Source: Octopus sinensis (Eukaryota). From it: a stretch of DNA of 11,935 nt. Shown one piece after another: positions 4,644-11,005 of the stretch; the stretch's first letter is position 1, and each line of letters starts with the position of its first letter. The notes beneath the pieces are model-generated. The model had not been told where the DNA came from. It worked only from the letters and a program-made list of their open reading frames with translations, and searched no databases. The stretch covers positions 1 through 11,935 of the forward strand of contig NW_021826756.1 in the NCBI RefSeq assembly GCF_006345805.1, in the 5' to 3' direction. The position numbers and the translations under genes were made by a program.

Positions 4644-4943
4644 TATTTCTTATTTATCTATGCGTTCATGGGCCTAGTTTCCCGGTTTCTATGGCGTATG
4701 CGTTCCCCCCAAGTGGACGGGACGCCAGTCCATCGCAGTGTTACTCAAGAAACAGGGAGAAAGAGTGAGAGAAAGTTGGGGCGAAAGAGTACAACAGGGG
4801 TCGCCACTACCCCTTGTCGGAGCCTCGTGGGCCTTTAGGTGTTTTCACTCAATAAACACACACAACGCCCGGTCAGGGAATCGAAACTGCGTTCCTCCGA
4901 CCGTGCGTCCGCTGCCCTGACCACTGGGCCATTGCGCCTCAAC
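4644..4943 (-). mobile_element. Full-length tRNA-derived SINE with 12-bp TSD
   Basis: Minus strand: A box TGGCCCAGTGG (4921-4931), B box GTTTCGATTCC (4877-4887), 3' module CTGCGATGGACTGGCGTCCCGTCCA...GCCATAGAAACCGGG, A-rich tail. Direct repeat TTATTTAGTAAT at 4632-4643 and 4944-4955. Confidence 0.92.

Positions 4944-5115: not shown

Positions 5116-5154
<39 letters not shown>
5099..5154. repeat. (TAA)n microsatellite
   Basis: Directly visible. Confidence 0.95.
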
Positions 5155-5155
<1 letters not shown>

Positions 5156-5346
5156 TTCTTAGAATAAAAAGGATGTTTACATTTTCAAATACTCAGGGAT
5201 AAAGGAAAGGATAGGTATTCACAGAAGTTGTAGATATTAAAGTTTAAAAAAAAATTAAGATGATCGTTTGTGTGTTCGGAAATTGTAGATATGTAAGTTT
5301 CCTAACTTATTTTGAGGGAGATTTAAAATACTCACAGGAAATTGTA

Positions 5347-5874
5347 GATCACATACCCGAAGGCATCATCGAAAATGATAATGTAAAGATCCTGTGGGAT
5401 TTTATGATTCAGCGCGACCATGAGTTAGAGAATAGGAAGCCAGACATAGTCTTAATTGAGAAAGAAAGCAAACGATGCTGGATCATAGATATAGCATGCC
5501 TAGCTGACAAGGTATGTGATAAGGAAGAAAGAAAAGTCGATAGATATGACAGGTTAGCTTGGGAAGTTAAGCAGTTGTGGTCGATGAAAAAGGTAGCAGC
5601 AGTACCAATAATTCTCGGAGCCCTAGGAACAGTGAACAAAAATCTCGAGAAGCACGTGAAACAAATAGGGGCTGCAATAAAGGTAGAGCACTTGCAGAAA
5701 ACAGCACTACTTGGAATCGCTCGAATACTCCGGAAGGTGCTCGAAAAATAAGACGAGGTAACCTTAGTTCACTGGTAGCGAAGAGCTGACACCGTAGTAT
5801 ATCTTCAGCGTTAGAAGCTGTGCAAAGGCAATAATAATAATAATAATATTAATAATAATAATAACAATAATAAC

Positions 5875-8214: not shown

Positions 8215-8720
8215 AGCATAAGGCCATATTTCTTCACGGTGGATACAATCTATCAAATTTCCCAGTAATTAGCAGTTGAGCGATACTTATTTTCATAGAT
8301 TTTGGAATGATGAGAGACTTCACCAATGGAGAAGTTCTTAAGCAGATCAGGCCGAAAATGTCGCTAGAAGCTAGGATCACCAAGCATAGATTGGCATATT
8401 TCGGTCATATTATGCGGAAAAAATCCCTGGAGAAGGACATCATGCTCGGAATGGTCAGTGGCAAGAGAGGAAGAGGCCGACCAAGAACCCGCTGGCTTGA
8501 CACCATCAAGAGTGATACCGGAATGGACATAGCCAATCTGACAGAAGCGGCTCAGGATAGAACTGACTGGAGGACACTAATCAAACGAGTAACCGAGAGT
8601 CGACTTCGACTGAGCGGATAGATAGATAGAGAGACAAGGATCAACAAAAATTGGACTCAAAACATACAGGAATGTTACAAAGTAACAAAGCACATTTTGT
8701 TCCATTCTCTATTCTCTTAA
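8215..8720 (-). mobile_element. Old family-'B'-like SINE split by the RTE insertion
   Basis: Joining the flanks gives GATACTTATTTTCATAGATTTTGGAATGATGAGAGACAAGGATCAAC...AATTGGACTCAAAACATA, which parallels GGTACTTATTTT...GGATGAAAGGCAAAG...AATTTGAACTCAGAACGTA. Confidence 0.55.
8319..8628 (+). mobile_element. 5'-truncated RTE-clade (BovB-like) LINE 3' end
   Basis: TNGEVLKQI...RLAYFGHIMRKKSLEKDIMLGMVSGKRGRGRPRTRWLD...AAQDRTDWR...VTESRLRLSG* is the typical RTE post-RT C-terminus. Short (GATA)n tail; candidate TSD GAGAGAC 8312-8318 / 8629-8635. Confidence 0.9.
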
Positions 8721-9395
8721 TCCATTATTCTAAAGATCCAATATTCTCAAAGTTTCGTAGTCAACGGTAGTTTGTACATACATATTTTTTACGATATTTT
8801 TACATTTATTTTACGATATTTTTTACGTTATTTTTAATTTGTAAATTATTAATTTTTATCACTTCTAAATATTTTTCTTTTTGTATTTTGTCATTCATTC
8901 GCAATTGTGTACGTCCACTTTTCACTAGTTTTTATTCGAATATATTTATTTGTCATTGCTTTCATTATTATATCATCACAAGTATATATTTTAATTTTCA
9001 TCCCTACATATTATTAATTTTATATGAATGTTTGTAGGCATAAGTCACGTTAGAATTTAGTTTTGTAAATTTTTAATTTTTATTATAAATCAATTAAATT
9101 TTTATTTGAATTAAATTATGGCTTGTACAGTAAGGTTCGGCGAAGTTATTTGCACATACGCATATTTATCTGTTAAAAAATTAAAATATAGAATTTGATA
9201 TTGAATTATAATAAAGTTATTTAGAGACCTGACGATTGGGATTGCGTTTTAAGAAATGTTCCTGTAAAACACTGCGTGCTTAACGAACGGCAAAAGAACC
9301 TCAAGAAAGACGTGTAGCAGAAATATTTAGAAATGAGTTGTAAGCATTAAAATAAAATTCTTTTATATAGTGTGATGACGGGGACTGCTATCTCT

Positions 9396-9400
<5 letters not shown>

Positions 9401-9435
<35 letters not shown>

Positions 9436-9512
9436 TACATACATACATACATACATACATACATACATACATACATACATACATACTTACATACATACAT
9501 ACATACATATAT
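9401..9512. repeat. (CA)n + (CATA)n microsatellite
   Basis: Directly visible. Confidence 0.97.
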
Positions 9513-9714
9513 AAACATAATCAAATAGGGTAATAAAATAAATTATTATTACCAGTGGCCTAGCACAAAAGACGAATTAGTCATTAGACTATATATTTTT
9601 CGTATAGAAATATAATAAAAGGCTTCCAAATAAGGAAGCGTAGTGTTAGAACCACAAAAAGGGATAAATTCATGAAAGGAAAGAAAATTAAAAACATTTA
9701 CCATCTCAGCTATA

Positions 9715-9790
9715 TCCCAGACCGAAAGGTTTCTACCTATTTTTAGCAAACACACAGAATATATTTGCCAGGCCAGGTTCTTCAGTGGGA
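9715..9790 (-). ncRNA. Type I hammerhead ribozyme motif (left arm)
   Basis: Minus strand: TCCCA-CTGAAGA-ACCT..AGGT-A-GAAA-CC TTTC GG-TC-TGGGA. Confidence 0.72.
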
Positions 9791-9814
9791 AGCCTTCGTA
9801 AGGATACGAAGGCT

Positions 9815-9890
9815 TCCCACTGAAGAACCTGGCCTGGCAAATTATTCTGTGTGTTTGCTAAAAAAGAGGTAGAAACCGTTCGGTCTGGGA
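9815..9890 (+). ncRNA. Type I hammerhead ribozyme motif (right arm)
   Basis: Stem I TCCCA 9815-9819 / TGGGA 9886-9890; core CTGAAGA 9820-9826; stem II ACCT 9827-9830 / AGGT 9867-9870; GAAA 9872-9875; stem III ACCG-TT-CGGT; GUC triplet with predicted cleavage after 9885. Confidence 0.75.
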
Positions 9891-10001
9891 TATAGCTGAG
9901 ATGGTAAATGTTTTTAATTTTCTTTCCTTTCATGAATTTATCCCTTTTTGTGGTTCTAACACTACGCTCCTTATTTGAAAGTTTTTTATTATATTACATA
10001 T

Positions 10002-10094: not shown

Positions 10095-10136
<42 letters not shown>
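10002..10136. repeat. (TA)n + (GATA)n microsatellite
   Basis: Directly visible. Confidence 0.97.
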
Positions 10137-10222
10137 GAATGAATAATAGTAGATGAGTGTACTGATACACTCATCTACTAATATTAGTGTCTGTACACTC
10201 ATCTACTATCATTCATTTATCT
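10130..10222. repeat. Nested fold-back palindrome
   Basis: TAGTAGATGAGTGTA (10147-10161) is the exact reverse complement of both 10166-10180 and 10194-10208. Outer arms extend through GATGAATGA/TCATTCAT. Confidence 0.9.
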
Positions 10223-10552
10223 CTCTCTACATATATATCTGTTTACGTATATATTTGCTGATCTCATTAGTTTAATTGTACCTCTTAAACACATGTTTGG
10301 TATCATTCAATAAATAGACATAATGGAGTGTTTACTGGCTGATGTTTATCAATTTTATATCCTCTCCATTTTCTTATTTGCCTTATAAGTCCTGGGTAAA
10401 TTTCCAACTTACCCCCACCCTTACCTAGTATTCAATTGCAATATTGCCATGCAATAGTAAGCACTTGGTTAAAAATACGTAGGTACATATCCAATGGTAT
10501 ATTGGATATTTAATATCCCTTAGATGGTTTATTAACCTGTAACTCATACAGA

Positions 10553-10573
10553 CATATATGCATATATATATAT

Positions 10574-10622
<49 letters not shown>
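10553..10622. repeat. (TA)/(TG) microsatellite
   Basis: Directly visible. Confidence 0.95.
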
Positions 10623-11005
10623 ATCAATAATAATAAAGGGTAAAATTAATTAATCAATTAATAATTAATAATTTTACCAAATATTTCAGTATGTTAAAAG
10701 AACCATTATCGGTAAACTTATATAAAAATTCTATAATTAAGAGCATAATTATAATTAGGGTTCAGCAAAATATGCTTCACCATATACCGAAATTTAGAAA
10801 TAGCAGTTAAAATACTATTCTCACTACCATAAGATATCTCCAAGACAGCAATACTCAACAACTCACGCAAGTAAAGAGAAAAAAAATAACGAATCCACCC
10901 GGCTCTGATTAACTGTATACGCGTTTCAGGGTTAGAGAGATGTAAAAAATGTAAAATCATATTTCTACTGTACTGACGAAGGGAATGTGTTGCTGTAAAT
11001 TTCAA
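10621..11005 (-). mobile_element. Second putative Penelope-like terminal-repeat element with 5' inversion
   Basis: Hammerhead 3' half CCCT-GAAAC-GC-GTA-TACAGT on minus (10912-10931) and matching 5' half ACTGTA-CTGACGA-AGGG on plus (10967-10983). Terminal hairpin like that of the 9515 element; flanked by microsatellites. Confidence 0.55.

Follow-up and report, generated by a model that had tools for sequence, protein, structure and literature searches.

The window analysed here, a stretch of 11,935 nucleotides of Octopus sinensis DNA, contains at positions 9609–9995 an inverted repeat that had been predicted to be a palindrome with arms of ~190 bp, ~96% identity and a 4-nt loop. The arms as measured (9609–9800 and 9805–9995) are 96% identical over 191 nt and are separated by the spacer AGGA. 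They differ at eight positions (five substitutions and three one-base indels), and the flanks outside them show no mirror symmetry. There is no ORF at the locus, including no RT and GIY-YIG ORF between pseudo-LTRs. The features are given below, with unit coordinates numbered from the predicted hammerhead cut and with A and B denoting the two sites at which the 3' ends of the arms lie.

9401..9512, no strand: (AC)n/(ACAT)n microsatellite with TA at its end, putative target on the left side
9513..9801, minus strand: long arm, a partial retrozyme copy covering unit −82 to about +208 (from monomer mapping, end motif and flank)
9513..9608, minus strand: one-sided tail of ~96 nt between sites A and B, in the long arm only
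9529–9553: hairpin in the one-sided tail
9715..9790, minus strand: second copy of the hammerhead motif, C3 at 9785, predicted cut between 9720 and 9719
9801..9804, plus strand: single-copy spacer AGGA at the inner junction, unique in the genome
9801..9995, plus strand: short arm, a partial retrozyme copy covering unit −86 to about +111 (from monomer mapping)
9815..9890, plus strand: type I hammerhead motif, C3 at 9820, predicted cut after C9885
10003..10136, no strand: (AT)n followed by (ATAG)n microsatellite, putative target on the right side

The remaining anatomy also agreed with the original prediction: the motifs start 12 nt from the fold-back centre (about 10 nt expected), the minus copy runs on for 96 nt (about 95 bp expected) with the hairpin inside this extension, and microsatellites lie on both flanks. 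The long arm terminates 3' at site B, which points away from the centre into the microsatellite and whose exact position is blurred by a few TA bases; the short arm terminates 3' at site A, which likewise points away from the centre, into (TA)n/(ATAG)n. The AGGA spacer is part of the short arm; it has a 1-nt microhomology with the long arm and adjoins a 1-nt deletion. The inner junction with AGGA matched the genome once at ≤1 mismatch (control 0) and has no TA tract inside. No empty site, second allele or target duplication could be defined at this locus, both flanks of which are other repeat families with best matches of 90–92%.

The contig appears to consist almost entirely of repeats. A different repeat family with 300 candidates, a hammerhead-like core and inverted partners adjoins the left microsatellite (9012–9403, plus strand), and a 608-bp palindrome of this family (93%) lies at L200:1139–1743. 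To the right, a small palindrome at 10133–10222 is followed by a third repeat family at 10183–10635 (1254 candidates), which has inverted partial partners at other loci. The stretch 10660–10990 is weakly similar (67%, partly AT-rich) to a repeat beside the Penelope-like element in L156; inspection by eye found minimal hammerhead halves there, the 3' half at 10912–10931 (minus) and the 5' half at 10968–10985 (plus), as if inverted within the ribozyme. SINE-like repeats, which we take to be octopus SINEs, and apparent LINE 3' ends are located at 600–810, 890–1290, 4670–4940, 5150–5830 and 8320–8620.

In the plus-strand motif, stem I is formed by CCCA/UGGG, the core CUGAAGA occupies 9820–9826 and stem II is formed by ACCU/AGGU; the 3' part consists of an extra A (9871), GAAA (9872–9875) and a 3-bp stem III. 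The minus-strand motif has one private change, in loop III (9727). The hammerhead core C3-U4-G5-A6-N7-G8-A9, G12-A13-A14-A15.1 and U16.1-H17 is present in both arms as CUGAAGA, GAAA and GUC, and these elements are found in most copies of the family. A stem-checked scan of the whole window returned these two motifs only, and its predicted cleavage position agreed with the cut after C9885 that had been expected. The constrained hammerhead fold was only slightly above the minimum energy (+2.6 kcal/mol for the plus motif and +1.9 kcal/mol for the minus motif).

The motif deviates from the canonical form between stem II and G12, where 82 of 83 aligned copies carry an extra A, and the pair 10.1–11.1 does not lie directly beside A9 and G12 in this family. 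The stem II register with the extra A pairs in 84%, versus 56% without it. The proposed check with Infernal and Rfam gave no hammerhead family, either in the whole window (E up to 1) or in 9808–9910 (E up to 10); the matches were to microRNA models only, fell below the gathering scores and reflect the hairpin. The claim of a complete type I hammerhead in each arm thus holds for the core, the stems and both sets of coordinates, but the extra A at 9871 is non-canonical and Rfam is silent. The accessible text of PMC3088659 lists core insertions A6a, U13a and near C3, an extra A before G12 being absent there, and our literature search for such a hammerhead found nothing closer.

The stems were examined in eight hand-picked related sequences, in which 92.6% of the cells were paired, a value that is no probability as the sequences share kinship, and six pairs showed two-sided changes; slid controls reached at most 49%. 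Across three related families, stem I changes from CCCA/UGGG to CCUG/CAGG and GGUCA/UGACC with the core unchanged. Core changes in the young family numbered 11/938 versus 696/22,224 elsewhere; this conservation was dropped as hammerhead evidence because the exact search pattern had itself selected half of the core. Judged from the core sequence and the stem covariation across related families, the hammerhead identity is well supported and cleavage is predicted. If this extra-A hammerhead does cleave, the accepted core widens, and motif searches currently miss such families.

A search of the genome with one arm, which had been suggested as a way to learn the copy number, indeed found many loci: 874 candidates, 40 of which were scored. 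The exact 22-base core pattern occurs at least 64 times in the genome (control 0), with no long tandem array among 64 exact-pattern matches. The family is dispersed and ORF-less, and its unit is a head-to-tail monomer of 439 bp with one type I hammerhead each; the tandem spacing is 439–440 bp in L008 and L023, and in a subfamily the unit is 431 bp (L034). A short non-coding head-to-tail unit is therefore a property of the family and not of the window locus. The 439-bp unit folds strongly (z = −4.0), and the copies diverge from the family majority by 2.5% on average. This low divergence, together with the absence of an ORF and the Penelope-type signature described below, bears out the view of a young, non-autonomous, ribozyme-bearing repeat. 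Two hammerheads on the same strand, one unit apart, are present in L007/L008, L023 and L034, which are candidate source copies able to release unit-length RNA.

The same layout was found in the 431-bp subfamily and in two sister families, which are listed with their numbers of candidates.

L144:1525–1700: sister retrozyme-like family, 1473 candidates
L150:820–1045: sister retrozyme-like family, 965 candidates

One of these sister families has U for C at core position 3. In both, loop III is palindromic and the stem II junction is mostly canonical, with some A–A mismatch variants. An intron-like signal (+19 to +74) is also present in the stretch 9901–9958 on the plus strand (unit +16 to +76), where the family majority has ATG and then GT, a polypyrimidine stretch and TAG; in the window copies, A replaces the final G of this TAG (9959), and no copy spliced at the signal was found among 77 mapped clusters. 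The unit layout suggests a non-LTR retrozyme-like family, for which an RNA circle is predicted. A search of the literature for octopus together with ribozyme or Penelope, including the accessible part of PMC13282606, found no cephalopod retrozyme; subscription papers and supplements may differ.

The loci sampled, which were top matches or exact-motif matches, comprised 110 loci falling into 77 distinct clusters, of which 39 were two-armed head-to-head, 37 were single copies and one was of another kind. Their outer (3') ends mostly run straight into TA repeats and concentrate in two places on the 3' side of the predicted cut, site A at about +105 to +111 and site B at about +205 to +210. Nearly all single copies (36/37) end at one of them, 13 at A and 23 at B. 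Full hammerheads on both arms are present in eight two-armed clusters, the window included, so back-to-back hammerheads are not special. The fold points differ at every locus mapped and that of the window occurs once, its junction being single in the genome; recurrence of the fold-back at the same point, which had been proposed for examination, was not found. The copies show the Penelope-type signature of 5' truncation, an inverted 5' copy, a one-sided tail and a microsatellite target. A MITE or fold-back DNA transposon was considered and rejected, as the outer ends differ (A versus B), the fold points vary and 37 of the 77 clusters are one-armed.

The palindrome is thus two head-to-head partial copies of a dispersed hammerhead repeat. 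The fold-back, which the original prediction had taken for the element itself, is not the mobile unit: the monomer is head-to-tail and 439 bp long, and each locus has its own fold point. We conclude that the family resembles the non-LTR retrozymes and that the palindrome is probably an integration by-product, one of many.

The two arms of a pair do not combine the end sites at random. In 28 of the 39 pairs both ends lie at A or B (the other 11, with one end elsewhere, were left out of the count), and 26 of these 28 join one A end to one B end (permutation mean 14.3, p = 2e-5). In L015, one exception, the B arm is split by a SINE. The 431-bp subfamily gave A+B in 9/9 (12 new pairs, three with an end outside the sites left out), and so did a sister family that is 58% identical (four of its 13 pairs left out), both counts being made by eye from tables; the pooled value is 44/46. 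The paired arms also have derived alleles in common far more often than arms from different loci (35 vs 3.2 ± 1.7, maximum 10, between loci; 29 pairs, 300 resamplings). The window arms have three derived alleles in common and differ at one site at which both alleles are common in the family.

The inner junctions are variable across the pairs and show microhomologies or short inserts. The inner ends lie within 15 nt of each other in 5/26 A+B pairs (expected 1.7, p = 0.023) and in 1/18 of the replication sets, and are more than 30 nt apart in 19/26 A+B pairs. Only 3/115 inner ends fall within 5 nt of the predicted cut, which is about the chance level. Copies crossing the cut account for 88/115 inner ends, a number inflated by the queries, and show only that uncut or circular templates exist.

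Long RT and GIY-YIG frames of 778–923 aa are present in the genome. Pfam did not recognise these Penelope-like proteins, and they were assigned from motifs read by eye and from atlas clusters with GIY-YIG and HTH_animal. Linkage of the repeat to a GIY-YIG/RT ORF, which had been suggested as a check, was not found in the loci screened. In 49 loci from one RT query, no pseudo-LTR of an autonomous element was homologous to the 439-bp unit, the only matches in these loci being to two sister non-autonomous families, and no Penelope-like ORF or protein match was attached to the subfamily and sister-family loci. A Penelope-like element beside L008 was considered as a parent and rejected; it has a different hammerhead with (TA)n between, and was treated as a nested target. 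Outward ends on both strands were seen in 5 of the 20 autonomous Penelope-like loci fetched, and all 5 pair a short end (+55–63) with a long end (+206–219). In these autonomous elements (L143, L144, L153, L155 and L157) the one-sided tail is about 155 nt; measured from the hammerhead cut, their long end is roughly as far away as site B is in the retrozyme. That a retrozyme carries the integration signature of the autonomous elements of its genome supports mobilisation in trans.

The copy in the window is predicted to be an inert dead end. It does not have two hammerheads on one strand and thus would not release unit-length RNA. In read-through RNA of either strand, the hammerhead fold is 108–115 kcal/mol worse than the duplex, compared with 2–3 kcal/mol for the motif alone; the expectation that a read-through duplex of ~190 bp competes with ribozyme folding is in line with these energies, by which the duplex is predicted to win. 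The further idea of an ADAR/Dicer substrate found no support, since no A-to-G strand bias was seen in the retroposed copies (48 A>G vs 74 T>C, p = 0.71). The palindrome itself is probably without function.

To the observed unit, its two end sites, the A+B pairing, the common alleles and the variable junctions we add a model, whose enzyme, order of events and RNA form we infer. The palindrome probably stems from one insertion, in which a Penelope-like enzyme acting in trans primed from both target strands on a single RNA, starting at B for one strand and at A for the other. This RT/GIY-YIG enzyme would cut a (TA)n tract on both strands, and one circular or tandem RNA would serve as the template for two rounds of reverse transcription, one begun at site B (+208) and the other at site A (+111). 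The 1-nt microhomology would then link the inner ends of the two cDNAs. As the cDNAs stop only 4 nt apart (−82 and −86), the result would be a near-perfect fold-back. The RNA would be uncut or circular, because both arms cross the cut and inner ends are so rare close to it. Work with one purified Penelope-like protein, a predicted dimer, showed cleavage and extension of both target strands, two internal starts and a preference for AT-rich sequence (PMC11167929). According to the same source, the start site in vitro does not differ between strands, which counts against asymmetric double priming. The missing pseudo-LTR homologue of the unit among the 49 RT-query loci and the mild enrichment of near-coincident inner ends in the main set only also count against it. 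The single family-polymorphic difference between the window arms means that a template of one unit needs a later mutation, or else a mixed tandem template, and the alleles common to paired arms could alternatively come from later gene conversion.

Other origins of the palindrome were weighed against the same evidence. A fold-back artefact of the assembly or library in a small unplaced contig might be suspected, as the contig has only 11,935 bp and a second allele was not found. This is extremely improbable given that the arms differ at eight positions, the flanks are unmirrored, the two outer ends coincide with A and B, the end sites of the family, and a further 38 two-armed clusters could be mapped, almost all of them in large contigs; on structural grounds we take the fold-back to be real and an assembly artefact to be unlikely. 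The fold-back could also be a mobile or functional unit whose hairpin RNA switches the ribozyme or feeds ADAR/Dicer. The read-through RNA would indeed form a duplex of ~190 bp at −330 kcal/mol, but this reading is scarcely credible in view of the unique junction, the different fold points of all loci and the copies without A-to-G bias. Two independent insertions, or two RNA molecules, placed head-to-head in one microsatellite would fit a region that is a nest of repeats of similar type, as well as the one family-polymorphic site at which the window arms differ. Independent events would not, however, yield A+B in 44/46 pairs or a tenfold excess of common derived alleles, and there is no TA tract in the inner junction; we hold this origin to be very unlikely.

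Self-priming is a further candidate. A strand, either cDNA or antisense RNA, would fold at its 3' end and copy itself, and the copy would later be trimmed at A, either through the endonuclease or as it annealed to the TA target. Such self-priming has been proposed for palindromic Penelope junctions in a rotifer (PMC3846280), and resolution by the endonuclease has been put forward as the origin of the tail (PMC8557442). Self-priming would explain the common derived alleles and also why close inner ends are mildly in excess. Nevertheless, we consider it rather unlikely: the spacer belongs to the short arm and the tail to the long arm, so that each arm has a part which the other lacks and extra trimming is needed, the inner ends of most A+B pairs are >30 nt apart, and site A also ends 13/37 single copies.

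Returning to double priming on one RNA, it is quite possible, and we suggest it tentatively, that Penelope-like integration is intrinsically asymmetric, with an enzyme dimer on one RNA giving A to one strand and B to the other. If true, this rule explains why Penelope-like elements have an inverted pseudo-LTR and a tail on one side only, and the 439-nt retrozyme, with its variant hammerhead junction, is a minimal natural substrate with which to reconstitute asymmetric integration. The accessible texts of PMC8557442 and PMC11167929 state the origin of the inverted repeats and one-sided tails as open. We found no literature that states the A+B pairing as a rule or derives the inverted arm from it, though subscription papers and supplements may hold such a statement. 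The family offers a countable genomic rule, one arm from A and one from B on the same template, and a short RNA for testing that rule.

In the twin priming of L1, both target strands prime on one RNA and a 5' inversion is joined by microhomology; there, the position of the second priming varies and very little sequence is common to the two pieces. In the present family, by contrast, neither start varies, and hundreds of bases can be present in both arms.

The animal non-LTR retrozymes (Cervera and de la Pena 2020, PMC7229834; Li et al., bioRxiv 10.64898/2026.07.22.740005), as far as their accessible descriptions go, resemble the present family in the short non-coding unit, the single type I hammerhead, the head-to-tail repeats, the strongly self-paired RNA (predicted here) and the Penelope-like elements in the same genome. 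The present unit of 439 bp is slightly larger than that of invertebrate non-LTR retrozymes (170–400 nt), its copies are mostly dispersed, with fewer than two units and half of them two-armed, the stem II junction is non-canonical, and RNA circles and cleavage are predictions here.

An experimental parallel is Poseidon of Anolis, for which the tail in vitro is the stretch between two internal start sites (Frangieh et al. PMC11167929). Both systems have two internal starts 3' of the hammerhead that define the tail, cutting and extension of both target strands (proposed here), an AT-rich target and uncleaved RNA as the template (likewise proposed here). Inverted products are not a subject of the accessible text of that study, and the present start sites differ from those of Poseidon in being AU-rich and in lying farther from each other.

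With endonuclease-bearing Penelope-like elements and their pseudo-LTRs, the retrozyme shares 5' truncation, the inverted 5' copy, the tail at one end and microsatellite targets (PMC8557442, PMC3846280, PMC4209133), and unlike them it has no ORF. Hammerhead pairs 100–700 bp apart on opposite strands have been reported (PMC4209133), and the Penelope-like tail is given as 30–40 bp, optional or often at one end only (Craig et al. PMC8557442; Arkhipova et al. PMC3846280); opposite-strand hammerhead pairs and one-sided tails are thus already described qualitatively. The tails found here are longer, ~96 nt in the retrozyme and ~155 nt in the autonomous elements of its genome, and the pairing of one short with one long end, optional in the accessible Penelope-like descriptions, is counted here in 44/46 retrozyme pairs and in 5/5 autonomous loci.
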